Made by a program: the position numbers and the translations under genes
Shown: positions 22,664 to 38,815 of the stretch, in pieces
Layout of the letters: every line of letters begins with the position of its first letter
How positions within the stretch are numbered: position 1 is the first letter of the stretch
Assembly: GCA_900770285.1 (NCBI GenBank)
Contig: CAAGJO010000003.1
Coordinates: forward strand, 9,989-73,988
From: Oscillospiraceae bacterium
Lineage (GTDB): Bacteria > Bacillota > Clostridia > Oscillospirales > Ruminococcaceae
Reading direction: 5' to 3'
Length of the DNA stretch: 64,000 nt
The notes under the pieces: model-generated
What the model was told of the DNA's origin: nothing
Database searches by the model: none
Seen by the model: only the letters and a program-made list of their open reading frames with translations

Positions 22664-22831
22664 ATAATTATGTATTGTAATCTATCTGACTTTCTTAATG
22701 TGTTATAGTAATAGTATTTATGTACGAAAATATGGTGAATATTTTACTTTTTTGTGGACTTATTTTATACTAAACTATTAATATGTTTAAGCATGTCGTT
22801 ATATAACACTATAAAAAACCGGGGCAGATTT

Positions 22832-23770
22832 ATGAATATTTTGATTTTAGGGGCAGCGAGTTTTGTTGGAAAAAATCTTACAATAGAGCTTGCTAAAGAT
22901 TTGGATAATAACATCACACTTGTGGATGTAAGCAAAGATTATTTTTCTCATATAGACTCAATTCATTCTGAGAATATACATGTAAAAGAATCTGCTTTTA
23001 TGTCAGATACTAATTTTGATGAATTGCTGGAAAATCAAGATGTTGTGTATCATTTAGTCAGTACTAATGTTCCTGCCACATCAAATCAGTATATATCTCA
23101 GGAAATAAACTCCAACCTGGTTTTTTCAGATAATTTGCTTAAGTCATGCGTAAAATGCGGTGTACAAAAAGTCGTGTTTACTTCTTCGGGCGGTGCTGTG
23201 TATGGAAAAGAAACCGAATGTCCAATTAAAGAGGATACAATAACTAATCCAATTTCATCTTACGGCGTTCAGAAGATTACTATAGAAAAACTGCTGTATT
23301 TGTATAGATATATTTACGGCTTGGACTATCGGATTATTCGTTTGGCAAATCCTTATGGACCGTATCAAAGACCGAATGGAACTCTTGGCGTGGTGACAAA
23401 TTTTGTTTATAAGGCACTTAAAGGTGAGAAAATAACGGTTTACGGAGACGGCTCTGTAGTTCGTGACTTTATTTATATTAATGACGCCGTAAGGGCTATA
23501 ATGAAAATTTCAGACGGAGAGAACAAGCATCATATATTTAATGTCGGATGTGGATACGGAACAAGTATAAAACAGCTGCTGTGTATTATTTCCCAAGCCT
23601 TGAATCTGGAGCTTGACGTTACATATAAAGAGGGCAGGAAAGCGGATGTGCCTGTTAATTACTTGGATATATCAAGATATGAGAAATATTATGGTAAGCT
23701 GAACCCCGTTTCACTAAGCGAAGGTGTGAAACTTACAGCTGAATTTCTGAAACAATATTATAATATATGA
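22832..23770 (+). CDS. NAD-dependent epimerase/dehydratase/reductase (extended SDR)
   Basis: ILILGAASFVG Rossmann motif, SSGGAVYG, YGVQK (YxxxK), RLANPYGP, RDFIYI. Confidence 0.9.
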   Translation: MNILILGAASFVGKNLTIELAKDLDNNITLVDVSKDYFSHIDSIHSENIHVKESAFMSDTNFDELLENQDVVYHLVSTNVPATSNQYISQEINSNLVFSDNLLKSCVKCGVQKVVFTSSGGAVYGKETECPIKEDTITNPISSYGVQKITIEKLLYLYRYIYGLDYRIIRLANPYGPYQRPNGTLGVVTNFVYKALKGEKITVYGDGSVVRDFIYINDAVRAIMKISDGENKHHIFNVGCGYGTSIKQLLCIISQALNLELDVTYKEGRKADVPVNYLDISRYEKYYGKLNPVSLSEGVKLTAEFLKQYYNI

Positions 23771-23787
23771 GAAGGTGAAGGTCAAAA

Positions 23788-24678
23788 ATGAAAGGCATTA
23801 TATTAGCCGGAGGTGCCGGTACAAGATTATACCCGTTGACTATGGTTACATCAAAACAGCTCCTTCCGGTATATGATAAACCTATGATATATTACCCGCT
23901 GTCAACCTTAATGCTGGCAGGCATTAGAGATATTCTGATTATTTCTACACCGGAGGATACTTCAAGGTTTAAACTCTTGTTGGGTGATGGCCATCAGTTT
24001 GGAATAAGCCTTTCTTATGCAGTACAGCCGTCCCCTGACGGTTTGGCACAGGCTTTCATTATTGGTGAGGAGTTTATCGGAAATGAACCGTGCGCAATGA
24101 TTCTCGGAGATAATATTTTTTACGGCAATGGTTTTTCACATACATTGCAGCACTGTGTTGAAAAAGCAGAGGATGGCTATGCAACGGTGTTTGGATATTT
24201 CGTGAGCGACCCTGAACGATTTGGTATCGTTGAATTTGATGAAAATGGAAAAGTCCTTTCTGTTGAAGAAAAACCGAAAAAGCCAAAGAGCAACTATGCA
24301 ATTACAGGTCTTTATTTCTATCCCGCAAATGTAAGCCGTATGGCCAAAGAAGTTGTTCCGTCTGCTCGCGGTGAGCTTGAAATTACATCTCTCAATGATA
24401 TGTATTTGAAAAAAGACCTGTTGAATGTTGAACTTTTGGGACGTGGTTTTGCATGGCTTGATACGGGAACTATGGAGAGTCTCCTTGAGGCTTCGGAATT
24501 TATACATATGGTAGAAAAAAGACAGGGTATTGAAATTTCTGCTCCTGAAGAAATAGCATTCAGAAATCAGTGGATTACTAAACAAGAACTTCTTAAATCT
24601 GCCAGAAAATATGGGAAATCTTCTTATGGTGTGCATTTAAAGACGGTTGCTGAGGGTAAGATTTATCATACCGTTTAA
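23788..24678 (+). CDS. rfbA: Glucose-1-phosphate thymidylyltransferase
   Basis: [44 protein letters not shown]. Confidence 0.97.
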
Positions 24679-24708
24679 AAAATAAAAGATAAAGGAATAT
24701 ATACATAT

Positions 24709-25734
24709 ATGAAACAGACAGTCATAGTAACCGGCGGCGCCGGATTTATAGGTTCAAATTTTGTATTTCATATGCTTGATACATACCCTGATTACAGAAT
24801 TGTTTGCTTGGACAAGCTGACTTATGCAGGTAATTTGTCCACTCTTGCTTCTGTAATGGATAATCCGAATTTTAGATTTGTAAAAGGGGACATTTGCGAC
24901 CGTGACGCAGTTTATAAGCTGTTTGAAGAGGAATGCCCTGATATTGTTGTTAATTTTGCAGCAGAATCTCACGTTGACCGCTCTATTGAAGATCCGGGTA
25001 TCTTTTTGCAGACAAATATCATGGGTACAGCTACATTAATGGATGCTTGCAGAAAATATGGTATAAAAAGATTTCATCAGGTAAGTACAGATGAGGTATA
25101 TGGTGATTTACCTTTGGACAGACCTGATTTGTTCTTTACTGAGGAAACTCCTGTTCACACAAGCAGTCCGTATAGCAGTTCCAAAGCGTCAGCAGATTTA
25201 CTTGTCCTTGCATATTACAGAACCTATGGTCTTCCTGTTTCCATAAGCCGCTGTTCTAATAACTATGGTCCGTATCAGTTCCCTGAAAAGCTGATACCTC
25301 TTATGATTGCCAATGCTTTGAATGACAAACCTCTGCCTGTATATGGTGAGGGTCTGAATGTGCGTGACTGGCTTTATGTGGAGGATCACTGTAAGGCTAT
25401 AGATTTAATTATACATAAAGGACGTGTCGGCGAGGTATATAACGTAGGCGGACATAATGAGATGAAGAATATTGACATAGTAAAGATTATTTGCAGGGAA
25501 ATTGGCAAACCAGAGTCACTGATTACTCATGTCACTGATCGTAAAGGCCATGATTTGCGTTATGCCATTGATCCCGAAAAAATTCACAGTGAGCTTGGCT
25601 GGCTGCCTGAAACTATGTTTAATGACGGTATCCAAAAGACAATAAAATGGTATCTGGATAACCGGGAATGGTGGGAAGACATAATTTCTGGTGAATATCA
25701 GAACTACTATGAAAAAATGTATAAAAACAGATAA
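24709..25734 (+). CDS. rfbB: dTDP-glucose 4,6-dehydratase
   Basis: TGGAGFIG, DKLTYAGN, AAESHVDRSI, STDEVYG, YSSSK. Confidence 0.97.
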   Translation: MKQTVIVTGGAGFIGSNFVFHMLDTYPDYRIVCLDKLTYAGNLSTLASVMDNPNFRFVKGDICDRDAVYKLFEEECPDIVVNFAAESHVDRSIEDPGIFLQTNIMGTATLMDACRKYGIKRFHQVSTDEVYGDLPLDRPDLFFTEETPVHTSSPYSSSKASADLLVLAYYRTYGLPVSISRCSNNYGPYQFPEKLIPLMIANALNDKPLPVYGEGLNVRDWLYVEDHCKAIDLIIHKGRVGEVYNVGGHNEMKNIDIVKIICREIGKPESLITHVTDRKGHDLRYAIDPEKIHSELGWLPETMFNDGIQKTIKWYLDNREWWEDIISGEYQNYYEKMYKNR

Positions 25735-25748
25735 AGAAAGATAAGCCA

Positions 25749-26864
25749 ATGGAAAGAATAGCTGTTGTAATGGGAAAAATGCATTCCGGCGGGAAGAAAA
25801 ATCTCGTTATGGAATACTACAGAAATATAGATCGCTCTAAAATTCAGTTCGATTTTATATGCGATGCAGATTCCAATGCAATCCCAAAAGATGAAATAAA
25901 AGAGCTTGGAGGAAGAGTTTACGAAATTGCTCCATATCAGCATATTTTTAAGAACATGAGTGATATGCGTAAAATTTGCAAATCCAATAATTATAAGATA
26001 ATGCATTCTTATAACGGCACTATGAATTTGTTCTCCATGTTTGTTGGCTGGCTGACTCATATTCCTGTCAGAATAAATGAGAGCATTTCTATGGGTCACA
26101 GTGCTGATAAGAAAACAATTTTAAAGAACATCCTTAAACCGTTTTCAAGAATGTTTGCCACGCATTTTATGTCAAATGGAGAAGTCTGCGGCAGGTGGCA
26201 GTTTGGAGATAAATTATATAATGAAGGCAAAGTAAAAGTCTTCAAGACAGTGATTAATACTGATATCAATAAATTTGACCCTGAAGTCAGGGCCAGAACC
26301 CGTGCAGAATATGGCATTGAGGACAATATTGTAATCGGACATATAGGTCGTTTGACCGAACAGAAAAATACTCTTTTTATTATTGATATATTCAATGAAA
26401 TTATAAAGCAGGAGCCAAAGGCAAAGCTGCTTATTATTGGTGACGGAAACCTTCGTGAGGCAATGCTTGATAAAATCAAGTCTTACGGAATTTCTGGAAA
26501 TATTCTTTACTTGGGAAGAAGAGAAGATATACAGCAGTTTTATAATGCAATGGATTGTTTTCTGCTTCCCAGTCTTTATGAAGGCTTGCCGGTAGTTGGG
26601 GTTGAAGCTGAAAACTGTGGTTTGCCAATGTTTTTCTCAACAGAAATTCCAAAGGAATCCAGTGCTTGTCCTGATCTGGGACATTTTATCAGTTTGGATA
26701 AAAGTGCTAAGGAATGGGCTGACGAGGTTTTGAAAGCAGCAAAGAAAAGTATTGGCAAGAGAACAGGAAGAACCGAAGAGGTAAAAGCAGCAGGCTTTGA
26801 TTCCGCTATTGAGGCAGAAAAACTTCTTGATTATTATGAAAATGTTCTTTCTGAAATAAAATAA
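25749..26864 (+). CDS. Glycosyltransferase family 4 (EpsF-like)
   Basis: GHIGRLTEQKN, PSLYEGLPVVGVEA (Ex7E). Confidence 0.9.
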   Translation: MERIAVVMGKMHSGGKKNLVMEYYRNIDRSKIQFDFICDADSNAIPKDEIKELGGRVYEIAPYQHIFKNMSDMRKICKSNNYKIMHSYNGTMNLFSMFVGWLTHIPVRINESISMGHSADKKTILKNILKPFSRMFATHFMSNGEVCGRWQFGDKLYNEGKVKVFKTVINTDINKFDPEVRARTRAEYGIEDNIVIGHIGRLTEQKNTLFIIDIFNEIIKQEPKAKLLIIGDGNLREAMLDKIKSYGISGNILYLGRREDIQQFYNAMDCFLLPSLYEGLPVVGVEAENCGLPMFFSTEIPKESSACPDLGHFISLDKSAKEWADEVLKAAKKSIGKRTGRTEEVKAAGFDSAIEAEKLLDYYENVLSEIK

Positions 26865-26884
26865 TTAATAGCTTTTGGATATGA

Positions 26885-27403
26885 ATGGAGGAAACGATTC
26901 TGGTACTTATGAAGATATGGTGTCATATTATCGCAGCTATAAAAAAGATATGGTACAAAATCGTTAACGGAAACAGAGTATCTTTTGGAAGGGAGACTAC
27001 TTTTCGCAAAGGATTTAGCTTAGTTATTGATAAAAACGGTACGGTTGAAATTGGCGACAATTGTTTTTTCAATAATGGGTGTTCAATTAATTGCCTGAAT
27101 TCAGTTGAAATTGGTGCAGGTACTATTTTTGGTGAAAATGTTAAAGTTTATGATCATAATCACCGTTTTGCGGATTTTAATCAGCCCATAAAATCGCAGG
27201 GGTATTCTGTTGGCAGCATTAAAATCGGAAAGCACTGCTGGATAGGAAGCAATGCTGTTATTCTTAAAGGTGCTGAAATAGGAGACAACTGCGTTATAGG
27301 TGCCGGATGTGTAATATCAGGAAGAATTGACAGCGGAAATATTGTTAAAATGCCCTGTGATTACGTTGTTGAACCTATAAGGGAGGATACTAAAAATGAA
27401 TGA
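26885..27403 (+). CDS. Hexapeptide-repeat (left-handed beta-helix) O-acyltransferase
   Basis: IGDNCF, IGAGTIFG, DHNH, IGKHCWIG, IGDNCVIGAG repeats; alternative start at 26909. Confidence 0.88.
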   Translation: MEETILVLMKIWCHIIAAIKKIWYKIVNGNRVSFGRETTFRKGFSLVIDKNGTVEIGDNCFFNNGCSINCLNSVEIGAGTIFGENVKVYDHNHRFADFNQPIKSQGYSVGSIKIGKHCWIGSNAVILKGAEIGDNCVIGAGCVISGRIDSGNIVKMPCDYVVEPIREDTKNE

Positions 27404-28379
27404 TTTAGTATCTGTAATTGTTCCTGTATATAGGGTGGAAGAAAACTTGCTGCGAAAATCAATCGAAAGCATAATTGAGCAAACACATAAGGAAATAGAA
27501 GTACTTATAGTAGACGACGGTTCGCCTGACAACTGCGGCAAAATATGTGATGAATATGCATATGCGGATACAAGAGTTAAGGTTTTTCACACAGAAAACG
27601 GCGGCGTGTCCAGTGCAAGAAATTTCGCGTTAGCCCGTTCCAAGGGAAACTATATATTCTTTGTTGACAGCGATGATTATATTGAAAATAATACAATTGA
27701 ACAGCTTTTAAAGGCTATAAAAGAAAATGATACAGATTGTGCAATGTGTGCGGCTAATCATATTGACGAAGATAATATGGAAGGCAATGCAAAATATGCA
27801 CATTCTGATAATAAAGTGATTTTACATCAAAAGGAAGCTGTTGAAGCGCTGTGCTATATGGAACAGCCTTTTGAAAGCTATGAGTTTACTGCAATTTGGG
27901 GATGTCTTTATAAACGGGAAATTATCGGTTCGATTCGCTTTAATACAAAAATGAGAATAGGAGAAGACTTTGAGTTTAAATACCGGGTCTTCTTGAATAT
28001 AAATTCTGTAGTTTGTCTTGAAGACAAACTATACAATTATTTGATAAGAAGTAAAAGTGCAATGAGAAATGGTTTTGATTTGAATAAGGTTGATTCTGTG
28101 ATTGAATTGCAAAACCTGTTAAGATCTGATGCTGCACTTAATGAATACAAATCTGCTTTGCAGTCACGAATAGCCAATATTGCTATTGTTGTTCTTTTTA
28201 TGATACCTGTTAAAAAGGATTATAAAAAATACCGTGAACCAATCAAGAGATTTTTGAAGCAAAACCGCAGAGATGTTATACGAAACCCTAAAACGAGGAA
28301 AAAGGTAAAGATTTCTTTGCTTATGTCTTATTTCGGTTTTGATTTGGTTCAGAAATTGTTTTTTACAGTTAAAGGGTAA
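27396..28379 (+). CDS. Glycosyltransferase family 2
   Basis: VSVIVPVY, VDDGSPD, NGGVSSARN, FVDSDD, GED. Confidence 0.92.
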   Translation: MNDLVSVIVPVYRVEENLLRKSIESIIEQTHKEIEVLIVDDGSPDNCGKICDEYAYADTRVKVFHTENGGVSSARNFALARSKGNYIFFVDSDDYIENNTIEQLLKAIKENDTDCAMCAANHIDEDNMEGNAKYAHSDNKVILHQKEAVEALCYMEQPFESYEFTAIWGCLYKREIIGSIRFNTKMRIGEDFEFKYRVFLNINSVVCLEDKLYNYLIRSKSAMRNGFDLNKVDSVIELQNLLRSDAALNEYKSALQSRIANIAIVVLFMIPVKKDYKKYREPIKRFLKQNRRDVIRNPKTRKKVKISLLMSYFGFDLVQKLFFTVKG

Positions 28380-28398
28380 TATATTGAGGAGATAGTTA

Positions 28399-29502
28399 AT
28401 GGTTAAAGTTCTACATGAGCTGTCGGCACTTGATGGCGGAGGTATTGCAAAATTAGTTTATGACTATTATTTGCATATGGATCATGATAAAATACATTTT
28501 GATTTTTTGATTTATGATTATTATGATGAAGGCATTTATGAACAGCCTTTAAAGAATTTGGGATGTAATATCTACAAGATACCAAGAATAAAAAAAGACA
28601 AAAAGGGATATCTCAGAGGAATGGAGAAGGTCATAAAAGAAGGAAATTATGATGTTGTTCATTCACATATGGGTTCAAGAGGTCTTTTTGCTATGTACTT
28701 TGGCAAAAAATACGGCGTTAAAATGAGAATAGTACATTCTCATATTGCATTTGAACCGGTTTCATCTTTGAAGCGTAAATTTAATTGTGTATTGGCAAAA
28801 ATTGCAAAGCATTATGCCACCGATCTTTTTGCATGCGGACAGGATGCAGGGGTGTATATGTGGGGCAGAAAGGCTGCCGAAAACGGGAAAGTGCACATAA
28901 TGACAAATGCGGTTGATACAGAAAAATTCAAATTTTCCAAAGAGATTAGGGATAAGAAGAGAGAAGAAATTGGCGTGGACGGAAAGCTGGTAATTGGAAT
29001 TGTCGGACGGCTTTCAGAACAGAAAAATTATCCCTTTCTTTTTGCGTCATATAAAAAGCTCTTGGAAAAGAGAAATGATACAGTTCTGGTGATTGTCGGA
29101 AGAGGACTTGACGAAGAAAAGATAAAAGCACAGGCTAAGAATATGGGGTTGCAGGATTCAATTAAATTCCTTGGAATACGTTCTGATGTTGCTGAGCTTT
29201 TAAATGCTTTTGATGTGTTCGTTCTTCCGTCGCTTTATGAAGGGCTGCCTGTGGTATTAATTGAAGCACAAGCAAACGGTGTGCAGGAAATTGTATCAGA
29301 CAGGGTTACTTCAGAAATGGACATTACTGATTTGATAAGATTTCTGCCAATAGAGGGAACTGAAAATGATTGGGCGGAGGCTATGGCTTTGTGCAAAGAC
29401 AACAGCTCCGTCAGAGAAAAATACAGCCAGCAGGTATCTGAAGCCGGATATGATATCAGGGTGGAAAGCAAAAAAATGCAAGATTATTATCTTGGAATTT
29501 GA
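28399..29502 (+). CDS. Glycosyltransferase family 4
   Basis: VGRLSEQKN, PSLYEGLPVVLIEAQ; paralogue-like similarity to 25749..26864. Confidence 0.9.
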   Translation: MVKVLHELSALDGGGIAKLVYDYYLHMDHDKIHFDFLIYDYYDEGIYEQPLKNLGCNIYKIPRIKKDKKGYLRGMEKVIKEGNYDVVHSHMGSRGLFAMYFGKKYGVKMRIVHSHIAFEPVSSLKRKFNCVLAKIAKHYATDLFACGQDAGVYMWGRKAAENGKVHIMTNAVDTEKFKFSKEIRDKKREEIGVDGKLVIGIVGRLSEQKNYPFLFASYKKLLEKRNDTVLVIVGRGLDEEKIKAQAKNMGLQDSIKFLGIRSDVAELLNAFDVFVLPSLYEGLPVVLIEAQANGVQEIVSDRVTSEMDITDLIRFLPIEGTENDWAEAMALCKDNSSVREKYSQQVSEAGYDIRVESKKMQDYYLGI

Positions 29503-29522
29503 TAATAGATTGGAAGAAAAAT

Positions 29523-30626
29523 ATGAAAATTGCATTAATAACACTTCATGCCATTAAGAATTATGGCTCTGTACTTCAGACTTTGGCAACTCAGGAAATA
29601 TTCAAAAGCTATGGATATGATGTGGAAGTAATAAATTATATAAGAGAAGACTGTTTGGATAAAAATTTGCTGCATACTTGGTGCGGTTCCAATCCCATAA
29701 AAAAACTGGCAATGATTCCTACTTTGATTAAATGGAAATCGGTTTTTAATGATTTTATTCAAAAGAATTTCAAGCTTACTGAGCACGTTTACACTTATGA
29801 TGAGGATTTTAGAAAATATCCTGTTGAAGCAGATTTGTACTGCACAGGAAGCGATCAGGTCTGGAATACAGGCTGGAACGGCGGTATTATAAAATCACTG
29901 TTTTTGGATTTTGTGCCTGATGATAAATTCAGATTTGCATATTCTGCAAGCTTTGGTAAAAAAGAGCTTTCGGTACAAGAGGTGGCAGAAACTAAGGATT
30001 ATATTCAGAAGTATAATTATATTTCTGTTCGAGAGGATTATGCAAAGGACATGCTGACAGAATATTATAAGTATCCAGATTCTGTACATATCGTTGATCC
30101 GACTTTGGCATATGACGGTGATTTCTGGAGAAAATATGCTCCGGAAAGTAAGATAAAAGGTGATTACATACTGATTTATAATCTGAATCGTTCTAAGGAA
30201 TTTGACGATTATGCTGTTGAGCTTAGCAAAATAACTGGTTTGCCTATTTATTTTTTGTGCAGAAGATATGACCAGTTTACAAGACCGGGAAAGAGCATTT
30301 TAATTCCGGAAGTGTTTGAATTTATCACGTTGATAGATAATGCAAAATATGTATTGACAGATTCATTCCATGCTACTGCTTTTTCATTGAATTTGAATAC
30401 AGAGCCGATTTGTATATATCCCAATGAGTATGGCGGCCGCCTTGAAAGCGTATTGAAAATGACAAATACTGTTCAGAGACATGTAGAAAGTTATAATGAT
30501 TTTGAAGTTGTAAACAGAAAAGTCAATTTTGATGAAGTAAACGGGATTTTAGCTGAACAAAGGAAAAAGACCCGTGATTTTTTGGATAAGGTATTCAGTG
30601 CATACGAAAATCGAGATAAAAAATGA
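29523..30626 (+). CDS. Polysaccharide pyruvyl transferase family protein (NYG..LQ subtype)
   Basis: NYGSVLQ, TGSDQVWN, YSASFG, ISVRE, DPT, TDSFHA. Confidence 0.87.
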   Translation: MKIALITLHAIKNYGSVLQTLATQEIFKSYGYDVEVINYIREDCLDKNLLHTWCGSNPIKKLAMIPTLIKWKSVFNDFIQKNFKLTEHVYTYDEDFRKYPVEADLYCTGSDQVWNTGWNGGIIKSLFLDFVPDDKFRFAYSASFGKKELSVQEVAETKDYIQKYNYISVREDYAKDMLTEYYKYPDSVHIVDPTLAYDGDFWRKYAPESKIKGDYILIYNLNRSKEFDDYAVELSKITGLPIYFLCRRYDQFTRPGKSILIPEVFEFITLIDNAKYVLTDSFHATAFSLNLNTEPICIYPNEYGGRLESVLKMTNTVQRHVESYNDFEVVNRKVNFDEVNGILAEQRKKTRDFLDKVFSAYENRDKK

Positions 30627-30669
30627 GGCAAAATGAAAATATGTTTAGGAAAATTACGGGGGTGGCTGA

Positions 30670-31809
30670 GTGACAATTTATTTGATTGCACTTTTTGCAA
30701 TATTGCTGTTCGGTGCTGCGGCAGATCACAATATATCCAAGCGGAATAAAAAGAGATTCATATTTATTGCATTTGGAATATTATTGTTCATCTCAATGCT
30801 GAGACATTATACCGTTGGAAAAGATCTTGAGGCACATTATTATAGTTCATTTTTAAAAGTAATAGATTTACCATGGAATCATTTATATACTCTGGGATAT
30901 GAGAATGGTTATCTGACATTTTATAAAATACTGAGTTTGTTTACAAGTGACCCGCAATGGATGATAGCAATTCATGCATTGTTTGTTATTGGAGTTACCG
31001 GATGGTTTATTTACAGAAATTCTGAAGATGTTGTAATAAGTACATTTATGTTTATTGCCACCAACACATGGTTTATGTATATGACTATGTTGAGACAGGC
31101 AATGGCGGTAAGCCTTATATTAATAGCTTTGGAAATATGGAAACGCAAGGACTGGAAAATAAGACGATTTGTTTTTTATTTTTTGATTGTACTTATAGCT
31201 GTTCAGTTCCATTCTTCGGCAGTTGCTGCACTGTTTTTCCCTATTTTTGATTTTATACCATTTAAGAGAAAACAGATCTTGGTTTCATTGACCACTATGG
31301 TCATATCGTTTGTATTGTATAATCAGATTTATAATGCCATATCTGTATTTTCCATAGGAAAAAGGGACTATACCGATTTTTACTCAAGAAGTGAATCAGT
31401 TATAAATCTGACCGGATTGTACTTTGTATTTATGTACATGGGATTCTTTATAATTGGCGTATATTGTTTGGTGTACCACAGAAAGAAGCCTGAGCCGGGT
31501 GAGATTACATATGAAAGCACATCGTCAAAGGGATTTAGTGACAGCTTTTTGTTATATATGGTATTTTCTCTTGTAGTAACCAGAATAATGGGTCTTAGAA
31601 TTAATATTGTTTCCCGAATGTCGTTCTATTTTATTCCATTTATTTTTATTCTGATTCCAAGAGCTTTAAATCAATTCCGTCTTGCGAAAGATAAAAAGTT
31701 AATAAAAGATACTATTTACATATTAATGATGATAGCATTTATCTGGCTGGGATTCAGAAATGCCGATTTCCTTTATGGTACAGTACCGTATAAATTCTTC
31801 TGGGAATAA
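30670..31809 (+). CDS. EpsG-family polysaccharide polymerase (Wzy-like)
   Basis: About 10 TM helices; LR...VG.D, E.GY, LRQ..A, FH.SA, R...YF, C-terminal VPY motifs. Confidence 0.82.
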   Translation: MTIYLIALFAILLFGAAADHNISKRNKKRFIFIAFGILLFISMLRHYTVGKDLEAHYYSSFLKVIDLPWNHLYTLGYENGYLTFYKILSLFTSDPQWMIAIHALFVIGVTGWFIYRNSEDVVISTFMFIATNTWFMYMTMLRQAMAVSLILIALEIWKRKDWKIRRFVFYFLIVLIAVQFHSSAVAALFFPIFDFIPFKRKQILVSLTTMVISFVLYNQIYNAISVFSIGKRDYTDFYSRSESVINLTGLYFVFMYMGFFIIGVYCLVYHRKKPEPGEITYESTSSKGFSDSFLLYMVFSLVVTRIMGLRINIVSRMSFYFIPFIFILIPRALNQFRLAKDKKLIKDTIYILMMIAFIWLGFRNADFLYGTVPYKFFWE

Positions 31810-31829
31810 TTATTAGTTAAGGAGTAGAA

Positions 31830-32864
31830 ATGTCGCAGGAAAATTCAATTAAAAGGTCAAATTCTATTGATATTTTAAAAGCCATTGCTGCGTTAATGGT
31901 TTGCTATCAGCATGCCTGCGGACAAGGCGTGATTGCTGAATATTTATTAGCATTTGCAAGAGTTGCAGTACCTTTGTTTGTTATGGTGACAGGATATTTT
32001 TACAGGGGAACTGTTGAAAAACACAGAGAATTCAAACAGATAAAAAAATTTTTCTTTATAGCAGTTGGAATGGTTGCTCTTTATTTCTTCATAGATTGTG
32101 CAAATCATTTACTGACACATGATTTGGTGAAATATTTATCAAACTTTTGTAAGCTGCCAAATGTGTTGGCGTTTGTACTGTTCAATGACCCAATTAATGC
32201 AGATCATTCCTGGTACATGTGGGCAATGATATATGTACTGTTGTTTTTATATATTGCACCTTCACTCTGGAAGAAAAAGATATCTCGATATATAATTGTG
32301 TTTACTACAGTTATCGGGCTGCCTCTTTTAAGCAAGTATGTATATCTATTTGATGATAATATAAAAATATCTTCTGATTTATACAGAAATTTTCTGATAC
32401 CTGTAGCAGCATATTTTATTTTGGGAATTATACTTTCAGAACATAAAGAATTTATACAAAAAATGGGAAGCAAAAAATGGGCAGTTATAGTAATTGCTGC
32501 AGTTGTATTGATTTCAGCGGAAAAAACCGTTTTTCAATTACTGGGCATTCATCATTCCAAAGGTTCATTTTTCTTTACACCATTGTTAGCAATTGCAATT
32601 TTCAGCTATTTTCTTAACTTTAATCATACTGGAAAAGTCGCCGGATTTTTTGCAAATTTCGGCAGAAAATATTCTTTGATGTTTTATGTTATTCATCCTA
32701 TTTTTGTCAGATTTGAAGTAAAGATTTTTAATATGAAAAGCTGGCAGCAGTATCTAGGATATTTTACAGTTGTTATTTGCACTTATGTATTTGTTGTTCT
32801 GTTTTACAAGGCAAAAGATTTTGTGAAATCTAATTTTATGGGCAGAAAATATGAAACTCATTAA
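31830..32864 (+). CDS. Acyltransferase-3 family membrane O-acyltransferase
   Basis: R..SIDILKAIAA..V...H, AVPLF..TGYF, WYM, YS..FYVIHP. Confidence 0.87.
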   Translation: MSQENSIKRSNSIDILKAIAALMVCYQHACGQGVIAEYLLAFARVAVPLFVMVTGYFYRGTVEKHREFKQIKKFFFIAVGMVALYFFIDCANHLLTHDLVKYLSNFCKLPNVLAFVLFNDPINADHSWYMWAMIYVLLFLYIAPSLWKKKISRYIIVFTTVIGLPLLSKYVYLFDDNIKISSDLYRNFLIPVAAYFILGIILSEHKEFIQKMGSKKWAVIVIAAVVLISAEKTVFQLLGIHHSKGSFFFTPLLAIAIFSYFLNFNHTGKVAGFFANFGRKYSLMFYVIHPIFVRFEVKIFNMKSWQQYLGYFTVVICTYVFVVLFYKAKDFVKSNFMGRKYETH

Positions 32865-32907
32865 ATTTTATCAGTTCAAAAAATGAAAGTAAGGAGTAAA
32901 ATTAACT

Positions 32908-34038
32908 ATGGATAAAAAAATTGCAGAAGTGATTTCTGGTAGTCCTTTACTCAAAAAAATATACAGTGAACTGTTTAAGATAAAAATTGCCAAAAGAAAT
33001 TTTAAAGCAAAACCTCAGCGTATTGAGCAGACTAAATTAGCACTTTCTGAGCTTGAAAGAGTGAAGAATTCAGAAAACCGCATATTTTTCTGTGGAATAC
33101 CAATGCATAAAAATATGGGCGACCAGGCCCAGCGTTATTGCATCCAGGAGTGGTGCCGCAGTAATTATCCCGATTATGATATTGCAGCAATTCCTTCGTG
33201 GCCGTTTTATGAAAAAAATTTCAGGAATGCATTAAAGGATACGGTTTGCAATGGGGATATTTTTGTCATTCAAAGTGGTTACTGCACTACAGACAGACAT
33301 TATGATCATAGCATGCATCGTTTTCTTGTGAAGAATTTTCCAGATAACAGAATTCTGATAATGCCTCAAACGGTTAATTTTTTTGATGAGCGGGAAGGAT
33401 ATAAAACCGGGAAAATTTATGATAAGCATGAGCATCTTTTGTTTCTGGCAAGAGATAAAGTGTCCTTTGAATCGGCAAAACGATTTTTTAAAAATACTCC
33501 GATTTATTTATATCCGGACATTGTTACTACTTTAATTGGCAGTATGTCCAATAACTCAGAAAGAGAAGGGTTATTGCTTTGTATACGAAATGACGGCGAG
33601 AAGAAATATTCTAATGAGGAAATTCATCGCCTGGAAAATAAGCTTGAAGAGTCAGGATTTGCTTGTGAAATATCTGATACTAATTCTGATTTGTCATTGG
33701 AAGAACTGGTTAAAAATTTCAAAGATGAACTGGATAAAACTTTAAGATATTTCGCTTCACACAAAGTTGTTATAACTGACCGCTATCATGGGACTATTTT
33801 CTCTATGATTTCAAATACACCTGTGATTGTTCTGGCGACTAATGACCATAAAGTAAAAACAGGTACGGAATGGTTTAAAGGTGTTTACGACGGTGCTTTT
33901 TATAATGCAAATTCCTTGGGTGAAGCTTATGATATAGCATATAGCTTAATGGGCAGCAATGTTAAATTAGAAAATAAACCATTCTTTAAAACAGAGTATT
34001 ATGATAAATTAAACCAACTTATAAAGGCAAAAGCATGA
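32908..34038 (+). CDS. Polysaccharide pyruvyl transferase family protein (EpsI/YvfF-like)
   Basis: NMGDQAQ, MPQTV, ARD..S, YPDIV, R.D.E, ITDRYHG. Confidence 0.85.
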   Translation: MDKKIAEVISGSPLLKKIYSELFKIKIAKRNFKAKPQRIEQTKLALSELERVKNSENRIFFCGIPMHKNMGDQAQRYCIQEWCRSNYPDYDIAAIPSWPFYEKNFRNALKDTVCNGDIFVIQSGYCTTDRHYDHSMHRFLVKNFPDNRILIMPQTVNFFDEREGYKTGKIYDKHEHLLFLARDKVSFESAKRFFKNTPIYLYPDIVTTLIGSMSNNSEREGLLLCIRNDGEKKYSNEEIHRLENKLEESGFACEISDTNSDLSLEELVKNFKDELDKTLRYFASHKVVITDRYHGTIFSMISNTPVIVLATNDHKVKTGTEWFKGVYDGAFYNANSLGEAYDIAYSLMGSNVKLENKPFFKTEYYDKLNQLIKAKA

Positions 34039-34047
34039 AGCAGCAGG

Positions 34048-35064
34048 GTGATATTTAATATGATTACAAAAATAAAGAAAGCAATACAATATTTTCGTGT
34101 CAGATTATATGAGCTGAAAATATGTTTTTTTGAATTTAAAAGAGGAAGCAAGTTAAAATCAGATGCCTATGAATCATTTTTTAAGAACGGTATGTTGGTT
34201 GAAGTTCATTCCGTTGAGAAAGGTCTTGGACTAAAAAATACACAGCCGGGTCACAGCTCAAAACCTGTTAACAATCTTATAAATAAAATGTTTAGTTATA
34301 TGGGCAGAGGATACGATGTAAATGATTTTGCTTTCAGGGAAACATTTCGTGTTATTTCTGCGTATATTGAATATCAGAAACAGTTTGATACAAGCAGTTT
34401 TCCGGAATTCCCTGAAATAGAGCGTAAATTCAATTTTCTGAAAGGAAAATTGGGAGAAGAATTTGTCAGCAAAACAGAAGAAACTTTATTGGCAGGTTCA
34501 AGAATAATTTCAAAAGAAGAATTGCTTAAAGGAAAAGATTTTGACTTTGGTTCTTTTATTTCATCAAGGCACAGCATTCGTATGTATGAAGATAAGCCAA
34601 TTAATGCTCATGATATAAAAAAGGCTGTTGAGATTGCAAATCAATCTCCGTCTGCATGCAACAGACAGCCAACCATGGTTTATTTCAGCAACAACAAAAA
34701 AGTTGTTGAACAGATTGATAAATTAATTACAGGAAGCAATGGCTTTAAAGGAGAAACACCAAATTACTTGGTAGTTACAACAGACCGTGCTAAGTTTATG
34801 CAGGAAGAGCAGTTCCAGTGGTACATAAACGGTGGAATATATTTATCATATCTTACTTTAGCTCTTCATTCACTGGGAATAGGCAGCTGTATTATGCAGT
34901 GGAAAGCTTTTTACAAAACGGAGAAAGAATTAAAAGCTCTCTTGGGTATTTCCGCTCATGAGGCGATAATAGCGATTGTAGGATGCGGGTATTATCAGGA
35001 CGATACAAAATGCATCTATGCTCAAAGAAAGGCTGCAGAAGAAACTTTGCAAATCGTAGGTTAA
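34048..35064 (+). CDS. Nitroreductase-fold flavoprotein with long N-terminal extension (paralogue 1)
   Basis: SRHSIRMY, SPSACNRQP, LHSLGIGSC; N-terminal VHSVEKGL. Confidence 0.85.
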   Translation: MIFNMITKIKKAIQYFRVRLYELKICFFEFKRGSKLKSDAYESFFKNGMLVEVHSVEKGLGLKNTQPGHSSKPVNNLINKMFSYMGRGYDVNDFAFRETFRVISAYIEYQKQFDTSSFPEFPEIERKFNFLKGKLGEEFVSKTEETLLAGSRIISKEELLKGKDFDFGSFISSRHSIRMYEDKPINAHDIKKAVEIANQSPSACNRQPTMVYFSNNKKVVEQIDKLITGSNGFKGETPNYLVVTTDRAKFMQEEQFQWYINGGIYLSYLTLALHSLGIGSCIMQWKAFYKTEKELKALLGISAHEAIIAIVGCGYYQDDTKCIYAQRKAAEETLQIVG

Positions 35065-35069
35065 TAAAA

Positions 35070-36545
35070 ATGTTTAATAAACTGGTGAACTTATATAAAA
35101 ATATGGGGATAGCGGCAAAAGCCGCAATTTGGTTTGTATTCTGCAATCTTATGCAAAAAGGAATATCAACCATTACTGTTCCGATGTTTACAAGATTGCT
35201 GACCACGGCAGAATACGGAACATATAGTCTCTATATTTCTTGGTTTAATATTCTTACCATTGTTACATCATTAAATTTATACTATGGTGTTTTCAATAAT
35301 GCGCTGAATAAAATCCGTGACAGCAAAGAGCGTGACAAATATGTCTCGTCCATGCAGGGATTAACTATTACCTTAACGGCAGTATTAATCATTATATATC
35401 TTCCTTTTCAGGATTTTTGGAGCAATCTCCTGGGATTAAGCAAATTAGTTTTGTGGTTAATGATTGCTGAACTAATGGTAGAGCCAGCGCTTCAATTCTG
35501 GTCAGGAAGACAAAGATTTGAGTATAAGTACAAGACAATGGTCAGTGTTACATTGCTCAAGTCTGCTCTTAATCCGATTCTGGGATTGATTCTAGTTATA
35601 CTTGCCAGAGATGACAAAGCAACAGCGAGAATCGTATCGGTTGTTGCAGTGGAAGTTGTTATAGCAGGAACAATACTGGTTATGCAATTCATAAAAGGCA
35701 GAGTATTTTACAATAGAGATAATTGGAAATATGCACTGGGGTTTAATATACCTTTAATTCCTCATTATTTGTCAGGAACTATTTTGAGTCAAAGTGACCG
35801 AATAATGATTCAAAATATAGTCGGAACAGCTGAGGTAGGTATATACAGCGTTGCTCACAGTATAGGTTTGCTGGCACAGTTGTTTACTAATGCAATTAAC
35901 AATTCAATGACGCCGTGGATGTATGAAAATCTCAACCAAAAAGATTACAAAAACATAAGAAAAAACGTAAATTATATTTTATTGCTACTGGCAGGAATAA
36001 TTATAGCGCTTTGCTTTTTTGTACCGGAACTGGTTAAAATATTCGGTTCAAAAGAGTATTATGATGCTATTTATGTTGTACCTCCAATTGCAGCAAGTGT
36101 TTATTTTATCTTTTTATACAATGTATATGCAATTCCGCAGATGTATTTTGAAAAGCAAAAGTTTATGTCTGTAGCTTCAATTTGTGCAGCAGTTTTGAAT
36201 ATTGTACTAAATCTTATTTTTATCTCATTGTTTGGATATTATGCAGCAGGATATACTACTCTTGCAAGTTATATTGTATACAGCATAGGACATTACTTCT
36301 TTAGTAAAAAGGTTTGCCTTGAAAATATAGGTTCATTTGAAGTTTTTGACAGCAGAACTATTTTTCTGATTTCCATAGGAGTAGTTGCTTGTTCAATAGC
36401 ATTTATATTCTTGTACAGATTCACTGTTTTGCGTTATATAATTGCAGGGGTGCTTTTGATTGCAGCAGTAAGTCAATACAAAAAAATAATAGGTGTAATA
36501 AAAGCGATTAGTAAAAAAACGGGGTTTAAACAAAAAGGAGCATAA
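35070..36545 (+). CDS. wzx: Oligosaccharide flippase (Wzx)
   Basis: Multi-TM; P.FTRLL...EYG, SDRIMI......EVGIYSVA, LN..FI..FG..AA..TT. Confidence 0.88.
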   Translation: MFNKLVNLYKNMGIAAKAAIWFVFCNLMQKGISTITVPMFTRLLTTAEYGTYSLYISWFNILTIVTSLNLYYGVFNNALNKIRDSKERDKYVSSMQGLTITLTAVLIIIYLPFQDFWSNLLGLSKLVLWLMIAELMVEPALQFWSGRQRFEYKYKTMVSVTLLKSALNPILGLILVILARDDKATARIVSVVAVEVVIAGTILVMQFIKGRVFYNRDNWKYALGFNIPLIPHYLSGTILSQSDRIMIQNIVGTAEVGIYSVAHSIGLLAQLFTNAINNSMTPWMYENLNQKDYKNIRKNVNYILLLLAGIIIALCFFVPELVKIFGSKEYYDAIYVVPPIAASVYFIFLYNVYAIPQMYFEKQKFMSVASICAAVLNIVLNLIFISLFGYYAAGYTTLASYIVYSIGHYFFSKKVCLENIGSFEVFDSRTIFLISIGVVACSIAFIFLYRFTVLRYIIAGVLLIAAVSQYKKIIGVIKAISKKTGFKQKGA

Positions 36546-36551
36546 ATTAAT

Positions 36552-37529
36552 ATGAGCTTTAAAAATGTTCTAAAAAGTAATGTATTTTTATGCCGTATGG
36601 GAAGGGCAATAAATATACACAGAGAATTTATTCATGATTCTAAGAATTTTGCAAAGTATTATAATAACAGCGCTGAAAAGAAAAATGACTATAGGTATAG
36701 TATTATGCTGATAGTTCATAGCATTGAAAAAGGTCTTTGTATGGAAAAACTACGTCCTTTTGGCAGTAAAAAAATCATAAGACTCATAAATATATTGAAA
36801 ACATATCCCCAAGAACGTCATAATGAATTTGAATATTCTTTGGCAGTCGCCGTATTAAATGCATGGAAAAAGCTGTATGATACTAAAAATTGGGTAAAAG
36901 AAAATGGTTATAGTGAAGCAGTGGACTTTTTAAAGACGCAAACAGAGCCTGAAATTTCTGCCGGATTTAAAGAGTATATTCCGATCAGTGCAAATTCCAA
37001 TTTTAACGATTTTGAAAGAGTTTTATTGTCAAGACATTCTGTACGAGATTTTCAAGATAAACCTTTAGAAGCTACTGATATAGATTTTGCTTTGGATTTA
37101 TTTATTGAAGCACCAACTGCTTGTAATAGACAAATGTGCAAAATATATTATATAACAAAGGAAAGTATTAAGAAAACTTTAGATGATGTAATTATCGGTG
37201 TTTCAGGATTTAATAAAAATACAGTGAATTATTTTATTGTTACATATGATTTAGCAGCATTTGCATATTCCGGTGAAAGACAGCAAGGTTTGCTTAATGC
37301 CGGCTTATGTGCTATGAATTTTGTAAACGGACTTCATATAAAGGGTATAGGCTCATGCTTTATGCAGTGGACAAACAAACCTAAGGAAGATGAAACAGTA
37401 AGAAGAATGTTAGGATTGGCCGACAGCGAAAGAATAGCAGTAGTTATTGGTGCAGGTTATTATCTGGACAAAAATATTATACCGTGTTCTACAAGAAAAC
37501 CTAAAGAAGAAATATTTAAAACAATATAG
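36552..37529 (+). CDS. Nitroreductase-fold flavoprotein with long N-terminal extension (paralogue 2)
   Basis: SRHSVRDF, APTACNRQM, LHIKGIGSC; N-terminal VHSIEKGL shared with paralogue 1. Confidence 0.85.
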   Translation: MSFKNVLKSNVFLCRMGRAINIHREFIHDSKNFAKYYNNSAEKKNDYRYSIMLIVHSIEKGLCMEKLRPFGSKKIIRLINILKTYPQERHNEFEYSLAVAVLNAWKKLYDTKNWVKENGYSEAVDFLKTQTEPEISAGFKEYIPISANSNFNDFERVLLSRHSVRDFQDKPLEATDIDFALDLFIEAPTACNRQMCKIYYITKESIKKTLDDVIIGVSGFNKNTVNYFIVTYDLAAFAYSGERQQGLLNAGLCAMNFVNGLHIKGIGSCFMQWTNKPKEDETVRRMLGLADSERIAVVIGAGYYLDKNIIPCSTRKPKEEIFKTI

Positions 37530-37550: not shown

Positions 37551-37585
37551 AAAAAAAGGCAGTAACACAATAGTTGCTGCCTTTT
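37551..37585. terminator. Bidirectional terminator closing the polysaccharide locus
   Basis: AAAAAAAGGCAGTAAC-loop-GTTGCTGCCTTTT. Confidence 0.78.
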
Positions 37586-37600
37586 CTATGTTTTCAATTT

Positions 37601-38815
37601 TTATTTTTTTATACCGTAGTTCTTAAATAATGTTAATCTTGCGTCTGCAACGCTTGTAGCTTCTTTTAATTCTTTTCTCTTCTTCTTACTGAATATCTTA
37701 ATAAAGTATTTGAATAAGCGTTTTATCCACATAAACGGCAAGAGCCATGGCTTATCGTAAAGTATTGGTTCTGCTATTTTCATTCTGCTGTAAGACGGGA
37801 AAATAACAGAAATTTTGCTGCTTTTATCCTTGTTGGACAGCATAGCGGAATCTATCAGATTGGAGCTTTGGATGTGTGATTTACTGTGTGTGCCGAAAGT
37901 TCCGGCTTTTTCAATATCTTCAAGCAGCATTTCCATATTATCGCTGCCCTGAATATTTGGAAAAGAAAATCCGAGATATTCATTGCCGATGGCAATTAAA
38001 TCTTCATAAAACTGCCACAGTGATTTGGATTTAATCACTTTTTCAACTTCGTTCCAGTCAATTTCTTTATCATATTTTTCCTTGAAAAGCAGTAGATCAA
38101 TTATCTGGCGAACTCCCACACCATAAGTTATAAAATGCTTATATAAATGCAGGAATAAAAACAAATAGTTTTTAGTATATTCCAGTGTATAGAATTTTTG
38201 CCCATTAAATTCAAAGGTAGCAGCATCGTCAAAAACATTTTTAAAGTAATCTTCTGAGTGGATAAATAATTCATCTCGTCCGTTGAAAAGATTAACGTGA
38301 AGTTCAATGCTTAGTTTGGTTTTGGGATTGTAAAATGTAATTTCCTGAACGTCAGATAAATTCTCAGGAATTTCATTTTCGCCTCTTAATTCATAGCCAT
38401 TCTCGAACAAAATTTCTTTGGCTTTTGAGAAATCTTCCATTGGAACCAAGACGTCTTCATCTCCGGATGGTCTGTGGTCAGACAGTTCCCCATACATACA
38501 TCTGCAAAATAAACCTTTTATAACAAGAGCCTTAATTCCGCTTTCTGTAAGTCTGGAATAAATATCTGTAAAAAAAGTTGAGCGCATGGCTTGATAATAT
38601 ACAATTTTATATACCTTATCTTTAAATTCAGACGAATCAGAGTAATCTTTGAATTTTTCATCAGTAAGACAGCCTTCATAAGCTATCGGCAGCAGTGAAT
38701 GAATTTTGGCTAAATTCAAAATTTCATCAAAGTCCGGATTGTTTAAAGGTATACGAGTTTTATGTAGTGCATTGCTTACAGCTAACATAAAGTTTATCAT
38801 TTGTAAATTCATCAA
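37601..38815 (-). CDS. Uncharacterised nucleotidyltransferase family protein (NTP_transf_5-like)
   Basis: IKG......YG....RPSGDEDVLV, IELH, HLYKH....GVGVRQIID. Confidence 0.8.
   Translation of the reverse strand: MMNLQMINFMLAVSNALHKTRIPLNNPDFDEILNLAKIHSLLPIAYEGCLTDEKFKDYSDSSEFKDKVYKIVYYQAMRSTFFTDIYSRLTESGIKALVIKGLFCRCMYGELSDHRPSGDEDVLVPMEDFSKAKEILFENGYELRGENEIPENLSDVQEITFYNPKTKLSIELHVNLFNGRDELFIHSEDYFKNVFDDAATFEFNGQKFYTLEYTKNYLFLFLHLYKHFITYGVGVRQIIDLLLFKEKYDKEIDWNEVEKVIKSKSLWQFYEDLIAIGNEYLGFSFPNIQGSDNMEMLLEDIEKAGTFGTHSKSHIQSSNLIDSAMLSNKDKSSKISVIFPSYSRMKIAEPILYDKPWLLPFMWIKRLFKYFIKIFSKKKRKELKEATSVADARLTLFKNYGIKK

Follow-up and report, generated by a model that had tools for sequence, protein, structure and literature searches.

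Why does a polysaccharide cluster of the Wzx/Wzy type encode two transferases of the pyruvyl-transferase family together with two flavin-dependent reductases, when the formation of a pyruvate ketal needs no reductase? The question is raised by a co-oriented cluster at about 22754..37529 on the plus strand of a 64,000-nucleotide stretch (the window) from an Oscillospiraceae genome, contig CAAGJO010000003.1, delimited here by an open reading frame (ORF) and Pfam scan. The two pyruvyl-transferase-family proteins (PTs) are PT1 (29523..30626; PF04230, E = 9e-35; motif TDSFHA) and PT2 (32908..34038; PF04230, E = 1e-29; motif TDRYHG), and the two proteins of the flavin mononucleotide (FMN) nitroreductase fold (NRs) are NR1 (34060..35064; PF00881, E = 6e-19) and NR2 (36552..37529; PF00881, E = 2e-17), the last gene of the cluster. 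An earlier reading of the DNA (the original prediction) had recognized these four genes, all on the plus strand, and Pfam confirmed each of them in its place. We consider, with a probability of about 0.7, that the cluster holds two modules of enolpyruvyl transfer and reduction, PT1 with NR2 and PT2 with NR1, each adding a 1-carboxyethyl (lactyl) ether, plausibly of (S) configuration. This reading draws on the comparison of genes, families and linkage; the reaction, product, acceptor and stereochemistry of these proteins are predicted.

PF04230 enzymes use phosphoenolpyruvate (PEP). In the proposed mechanism, the PT would bind PEP and join its C2 to one hydroxyl of a sugar, with loss of phosphate, an adduct that should be able either to close to a ketal or to eliminate to an enolpyruvyl ether. 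Here the PT would release the enolpyruvyl ether rather than close the cyclic ketal; NAD(P)H would reduce the FMN-dependent NR, whose hydride, added to the enol double bond, would then yield a lactyl ether, probably (S), and the decorated repeat unit would be flipped by Wzx and polymerized by Wzy. As acceptor, either a nucleotide sugar or the repeat on its undecaprenyl carrier is conceivable: UDP-GlcLA is cited for the Escherichia coli O124 antigen (PMC7685785), and WcfO is described as requiring a lipid carrier (PMC6801904). We favor enolpyruvyl transfer followed by reduction with FMNH2 because a reductase is needed only on this route and because the nitroreductase fold offers a precedent: in the nitroreductase-fold domain of mycobacterial FbiB, which acts in F420 synthesis, FMNH2 is reported to reduce an enolpyruvyl to an (S)-lactyl group, with docking accounting for the (S) configuration (PMC6450877).

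NR1 and NR2 share 31% identity over 297 amino acids (E = 5e-44) and belong to a group of proteins of about 330 residues in which a helical N-terminal domain precedes the nitroreductase core. The VHS(V/I)EKGL motif of the original prediction is present in both forms, VHSVEKGL and VHSIEKGL, and extends as HxxEKG[LM] across 148 relatives, a set chosen from database homologue searches. Its His and Glu are invariant (H50 and E53), as are R174, P197, C200 and N201. R170, S172, R174 and R323, which we take to be residues of the FMN-binding type of the nitroreductase family, are 93-100% conserved, and these Arg and Ser residues are compatible with FMN binding. A structure model of NR1 (predicted local distance difference test [pLDDT] 95; predicted template-modeling score 0.90) has an all-helical part of about 150 residues before the core, and its best Foldseek rows were nitroreductases and iodotyrosine deiodinases (E about 1e-10), matched over the core only; by domain (PF00881) and fold, both proteins belong to the FMN nitroreductase superfamily. 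The helical domain gave no informative structural match when searched as a single-sequence model of pLDDT 66 (a helical bundle scored best, with a Z of 9.7), and only unnamed nitroreductase clusters came from the Atlas. Our guess is that the HxxEKG domain binds the acceptor or the partner. When 400 genomes of the host's order were searched, the NR profile gave 5 full-length matches at E <1e-70, and 97 genomes had matches to the core domain only, at E >1e-32. This clean split of scores, together with the N-terminal domain and the motif, sets the relatives of NR1 and NR2 apart as a distinct subfamily. They are spread over Bacillota, Proteobacteria and Actinomycetota, and in the host's own genome (84% complete) NR1 and NR2 are the sole two matches to the subfamily profile at E <= 0.001. 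A scan of species genomes with a single NR protein yielded two loci only; in a phylum-wide sample none of 400 further genomes matched at E <= 1e-40, with at most five candidates scored per genome, so that members can be missed; viral contigs held no NR relative.

The genes of this subfamily lie next to PF04230 genes. We surveyed 108 NR genes in 100 loci, comprising members from the order sample, the two species-genome loci, 80 metagenome loci (the best 80 of 177 matches), 11 plasmids (of 40 plasmid records matched, 24 of them from Rhizobium), the E. coli O146 cluster and the window; these relatives are not independent. For 69 NR genes at least 6 kb of upstream sequence was available, and a PT was found within 8 kb in 65 of them by a PT profile and in 2 more by Pfam (67/69, or 45/47 after clustering at 60% identity); since the profile missed these two true PTs, its negatives are soft. 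The 39 NR genes with shorter flanks had a PT in 24 cases, and the other 15 have less than 3 kb upstream. In the 400-genome sample, drawn evenly from the host's order, a PF04230 gene lay within 2 kb of all five full-length members, as it did in both species-genome loci. Ordinary short nitroreductases, taken from 35 genomes picked by score and contiguity among the 97, had a PF04230 gene within 10 kb in none of 35 cases (the nearest was 49 kb away), and 23 of these 35 genomes have a PT elsewhere. PT and NR are joined in one protein on plasmids of the Paracoccaceae Gemmobacter fulvus and Paracoccus alcaliphilus. Another search for longer, fused NR forms found none among 7994 candidates, which is uninformative, the plasmid search having already shown the two fusions. 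The neighborhood survey that the original prediction had called for therefore came out in favor of co-occurrence.

The strongest evidence that the product may be a lactyl ether comes from bacterial antigens of solved structure. Lactyl groups are listed for the E. coli O58, O69, O124, O146 and O150 antigens, and that of O146 is O-linked, in a lactyl-glucose (PMC7685785). In an annotated record, the O146 cluster reads rmlBDAC-NR-wzx-PT-GT-wzy (GT, glycosyltransferase). Its NR is a full-length match to the profile of NR1/NR2 relatives (E = 1.5e-78), and carries YHSLEKGL and PSACNRQ; matches to this gene came from 17 of 5426 E. coli genomes, each next to an O146 wzx. E. coli ATCC 8739 matches the O146 cluster. 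The cross-reference to solved glycans that had been proposed at the outset thus places a PT and an NR of this subfamily together in the cluster of a lactyl-bearing antigen. The O69 cluster has no NR-subfamily gene and reads rmlBDAC-FrhB-wzx-PT-GT-wzy. Because the NR of O146 and the FrhB-like gene of O69 take equivalent positions, two unrelated flavoproteins share one slot in lactylated antigens, an exchange that includes a single NR case. In O124/O164 the order is wzx-FrhB-PT, one record having the PT whole and another having it split, and O164 is reported to lack the lactyl group owing to a frameshift in the pyruvyltransferase gene wfeP (PMC7685785). Linkage, fusions and O146 together bear out the original idea that such PT/NR pairs make lactyl ethers, a conclusion whose chemical part is inferred.

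Distant DNA searches returned no record labeled O150 or O58. E. coli SE15, taken to be an O150 strain, was considered as a second (S)-lactyl case and was rejected: by its record annotation it has an O16-type cluster (L150, 12306-19053). E. coli IAI1 has, adjoining its O8 ATP-binding cassette (ABC) locus, a galF-gnd cluster of the order wzx-FrhB-PT-wzy-GT-galE-GT (L149, 12948-21009), which presumably resembles that of Shigella boydii 17. Small E. coli plasmids carry cassettes flanked by insertion sequences, wzx-NR-PT-GT (L005, 3963-12557) and wzx-FrhB-PT-GT (L201, 6725-14798), suggesting mobile glycan-decorating modules. For 79 Klebsiella K loci, two nitroreductases and one F420-hydrogenase gene are reported, and K8, K22, K37 and K66 are given there as having pyruvyltransferase genes and capsules without pyruvylation (PMC4616057). 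As to which K loci hold the reductases, the supplement files of PMC13123978 and PMC5359410 gave no matches, 4 of the 16 files of one set being unsearched.

Which transferase works with which reductase? A PT1-like gene directly precedes an NR2-like gene in L068, L083 and L089, and a PT2-like gene directly precedes an NR1-like gene in L001 and L002. The L001 stretch holds no PT1; in L002 the PT1 homologue has an FrhB-like gene after it, and the 17-kb stretch lacks NR2. Since these rearranged orders separate the pairs, the probable partner of PT1 is NR2 and that of PT2 is NR1. The original prediction had relied on the 2:2 gene count, which is weak support when taken alone, given that many relatives have two PTs and one NR; it is the rearranged orders that carry the pairing. 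Close relatives (L069, L073-L075, L091 and L097) have the gene order of the window, and L076, L121 and L067 combine two PTs with a single NR and a single FrhB-like gene.

The two PTs are barely alignable (21% identity, E = 0.028) and are therefore taken as distinct lineages. In a FastTree phylogeny (no support values), PT1 falls in a broad clade with the O146, O69 and O124 transferases, and PT2 lies outside it. The best solved relative of PT2 is Pvg1p (5AX7; E = 1.5e-8, alignment over residues 58-337), and its sub-clade is small, with TDRYHG and QSGY where others have TDRLHG and a Gly-rich loop. In a docking model of Pvg1p, R337-L338-H339 contacts PEP (PMC6801904). At this position, E. coli WcaK has GTRLHS, PT1 has SFH and PT2 has RYH, so that neither PT keeps the R-L-H of ketal formers, a motif taken from the docking model rather than an established mark of the family. 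A set of 148 PTs, all from loci of 8 kb or more, formed 98 clusters at 60% identity; a reductase was found within 5 kb in 61/66 clusters with an aromatic residue before the His, in 3/29 with Leu or Met and in 3/3 with other residues, an association inflated by the fact that most aromatic PTs were found through NR. A later set comprised 20 loci from the PT list (the motif had already been seen for 5 of them, long CsaB-like proteins were mostly left out and one locus was without PT); an FrhB-like neighbor was present for 9/14 aromatic, 0/3 Leu and 3/3 other PTs. The aromatic-for-Leu motif thus appears to be a useful but imperfect mark of reductase-linked PTs, and its presence in more than one PT branch suggests that it arose repeatedly.

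Several observations weigh against two lactyl-ether modules. Only one NR-bearing cluster, O146, is tied to a solved lactylated glycan, and the metagenome part of the survey leans to NR2-like relatives. FbiB acts on a phosphate-linked, not an ether-linked, enolpyruvyl, and NR2 matches its model weakly (E = 0.0055); Pvg1p, the sole solved relative of PT2, makes a 4,6-ketal. Gene numbers are uneven in some relatives, with two PTs to one NR and no FrhB-like gene in view in L082, L100-L107, L109-L111, L120, L125 and L136, and three reductases (two NR and one FrhB-like) for two PTs in L069 and L097. The 2 PT-less genes among the 69 are on Rhizobium plasmids, replicons that lack a PF04230 gene (2/2 inspected). 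Finally, 5 of the 14 aromatic-motif PTs of the later set have neither NR nor FrhB-like gene nearby, and 2 NR-linked PTs carry RMH. The orphan NRs of Rhizobium are at 7833-8840 in L006 and 7887-8891 in L008. Among the 26 ORFs neighboring the five reductase-less aromatic PTs, no third reductase family was shared. Two SFH-type PTs without NR or FrhB-like gene (L182, 7346-10606; L188, 5692-9060) each adjoin a hexapeptide acyltransferase and an ORF of 510-550 amino acids with no Pfam match at E 1e-8, and L182 also has an open frame of more than 2400 codons upstream.

The position of PT2 gives most room to another reading, in which the decoration is mixed: PT1 with one or both NRs would make a lactyl ether, PT2 would make a pyruvate ketal, and the second NR would be redundant or serve PT1. 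Both the kinship of PT2 with ketal-forming Pvg1p, outside the clade of the O146, O69 and O124 enzymes, and the many relatives with two PTs and one NR fit this reading. However, PT2 homologues of more than 39% identity adjoin a reductase in all cases seen, PT2 and NR1 stand together without PT1 in the L001 stretch, and RYH is found in 7/7 close PT2s versus RLH or RMH in 11 distant ones. A converse search with PT2 in 401 genomes of one family gave 25 matches in 24 genomes; both close homologues adjoin a reductase, an NR in G401 (a center selected through NR) and an FrhB-like gene in G1129, and at the 22 loci of distant Pvg1p-like PTs, NR was absent and FrhB-like sequence was matched once, in part. 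Mixed decoration is thus unlikely, though it survives best among the alternatives.

The chemistry might also differ, with the PT making a ketal or another PEP adduct that the NR opens reductively, or with a related group as product, for instance a carboxyethyl in N-linkage or an ether of a longer hydroxy acid; for the first of these variants, we know of no flavoenzyme that opens a ketal reductively. The three characterized PF04230-type enzymes covered by one review are all ketal formers (PMC6801904), N-carboxyethyl and dihydroxypentanoate substituents are described in bacterial glycans, and the genetics of O124/O164 shows that the PT is required, not what the intermediate is. Set against this, hydride addition to an enolpyruvyl double bond has precedents in MurB and in the nitroreductase fold (FbiB), and the lactyl group of O146 is given as O-linked (PMC7685785), which makes a different chemistry improbable. 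That both PTs make ketals, and that the NRs are accessory oxidoreductases traveling with polysaccharide loci for another reason, is very improbable: the orphan Rhizobium copies and a Shewanella capsule-cluster nitroreductase, perhaps of another subfamily, described as dispensable for capsule synthesis (PMC13597727) point that way, but they are opposed by the linkage of 67/69 versus 0/35, the PT-NR fusions, the occupation of one slot by NR or FrhB in lactylated antigens and the absence of NR beside RLH-type PTs.

Taken as a lactyl-ether locus, the cluster is a variant of a genetically known two-gene system: it is nitroreductase-type and doubled, and one of its transferases comes from the Pvg1p-like branch. 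Whether such a pathway had been described was left open by the original prediction; it is not new in kind, given the loss of wfeP in O164 and a 2006 report by Senchenkova that, to judge by its title, assigns two genes to glucolactilic acid in S. boydii 17. An assignment of these genes may already stand in Senchenkova 2006, Liu 2008 and Knirel 2017. In a literature search that left most subscription journals uncovered, no title or abstract start tied this NR subfamily to lactyl ethers or showed the reaction in vitro, and for lactyl-ether sugars it yielded assignments by genetics alone; neither an enzyme mechanism nor an explanation of R versus S was among them. Among the titles and abstract starts listed in one search, none dealt with the Butyrivibrio fibrisolvens exopolysaccharide that the original prediction gave as an example. 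The present analysis adds the PT/NR pairing, the hypothesis that NR gives (S) and FrhB (R), and the aromatic-for-Leu motif of reductase-linked PTs.

The closest parallel is O146, which has the same NR subfamily (32% identity to NR1), an SFH-type PT (29% to PT1) and the Wzx/Wzy route, but one module where the window has two, and no Pvg1p-like PT. O124/O164, with wfeO-wfeP, and O69 likewise combine a PF04230 transferase with a redox partner, and in O164 it is the wfeP frameshift that removes the lactyl group; their partner is an Fe-S/flavin FrhB-like protein (PF04432), whereas that of the window is a nitroreductase. The proposed enolpyruvyl transfer from PEP followed by flavin reduction to a lactyl ether recalls MurA/MurB in reaction logic only, since the folds differ and none of the four proteins has a MurA or MurB family match in Pfam or NCBIfam. 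FbiB's C-terminal domain shares the nitroreductase fold and the proposed reduction by FMNH2; unlike FbiB, NR2 scores 16.5 bits against TIGR03553 (cut-off, 249.55), NR1 has no listed match, the substrate of FbiB is a phospho-enolpyruvyl cofactor, and no N-terminal HxxEKG domain is reported for it in the parts of the source available to us. The ketal formers Pvg1p, WcaK and CsaB share the PF04230 family with PT1 and PT2, and PT2 aligns to Pvg1p; Pvg1p and WcaK differ from both in having RLH.

The configuration of the product may follow from the reductase. If the listing order of the E. coli antigen review is read as respective, the FrhB case would be (R) and the NR case (S), a hypothesis with one NR case behind it. 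MurB gives an (R) ether, and the lactyl group of Klebsiella K22 is reportedly (S). The carboxyethyl glucose structure of Shigella dysenteriae is presumably that of O124. It is reported as (R) (PMC10609480). More generally, we put forward tentatively, and at somewhat less than even odds, that PF04230 holds enolpyruvyl-ether formers that evolved from ketal formers on more than one occasion and are marked by the aromatic residue in place of Leu, with an interchangeable reductase setting the configuration, (S) for the HxxEKG NR and (R) for the FrhB-like type. On another contig of the host's genome (C25:3312-5723, minus strand) lies an 803-amino-acid FrhB-like/PF04230 fusion with the motif SCH, beside glf-like and ABC-transporter genes, and this genome thus seems to hold the FrhB reductase type in a second glycan locus.

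The rest of the cluster, all on the plus strand, is in keeping with a Wzx/Wzy-type locus. Its upstream part (22754..29502) encodes an NAD-dependent epimerase/reductase, rmlA, rmlB, a GT4, a hexapeptide acetyltransferase, a GT2 and a further GT4. PT1 is followed by a Wzy-type polymerase of the EpsG family (30670..31809; PF14897, E = 2e-46) and by a membrane O-acyltransferase (31830..32864; Acyl_transf_3 in Pfam) that is missing from the equivalent slot of the close relative L074. As originally predicted, the NR genes flank wzx (35070..36545; PF01943). The spacing of about 10 nucleotides noted with it holds for NR2, which starts 6 nucleotides past the wzx stop, and for NR1 when its longest ORF is used, from GTG 34048, 9 nucleotides past the PT2 stop, but a 334-amino-acid database copy fits a start at ATG 34060. 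For wzx, the listed ORF from 34983 overlaps NR1, and ATG 35070, directly after the NR1 stop, is the most likely start. A terminator-like hairpin (37554..37585, plus strand; consensus match only) follows NR2, and an NTP_transf_5 nucleotidyltransferase gene (37601-38815, minus strand) converges on it. rmlA, rmlB and the epimerase/reductase lie at 22754-25734; rmlC and rmlD are not in the cluster, and E. coli RmlC and RmlD queries gave no match at E 1e-6 in the 84%-complete genome, so that the 6-deoxysugar of the cluster may not be L-rhamnose. No priming glycosyltransferase or chain-length gene was found by Pfam among the 14 cluster ORFs scanned (22754-37529); priming-glycosyltransferase homologues of the same genome are on contigs C19 and C21. 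Elsewhere in the window, directly after gatA, a single ORF of 956 amino acids (49392-52262, plus strand) joins GatB domains (PF02934 and PF02637) to a class II aminoacyl-tRNA synthetase domain (PF00152) and is probably a GatB-AspRS fusion.

Several antigens of E. coli, Shigella, Klebsiella and Proteus contain lactyl-ether sugars, which occur in (R) and (S) forms. If the present reading is true, an unannotated nitroreductase subfamily would gain a function, and a second route to the chemistry of MurA/MurB, built from unrelated folds, would be known. A sequence rule could then tell from a gene cluster whether a ketal or a lactyl group is made, and possibly whether the latter is R or S. Since the operon has two modules that can be separated and PT and NR are naturally fused in some proteins, the question is directly testable with purified proteins. 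For this bacterium, the repeat unit of the locus would carry two different (S)-lactyl ethers, one of them made by a recruited enzyme of the Pvg1p type, and its genome would also make an (R)-lactyl glycan through the FrhB-PT fusion on the other contig.

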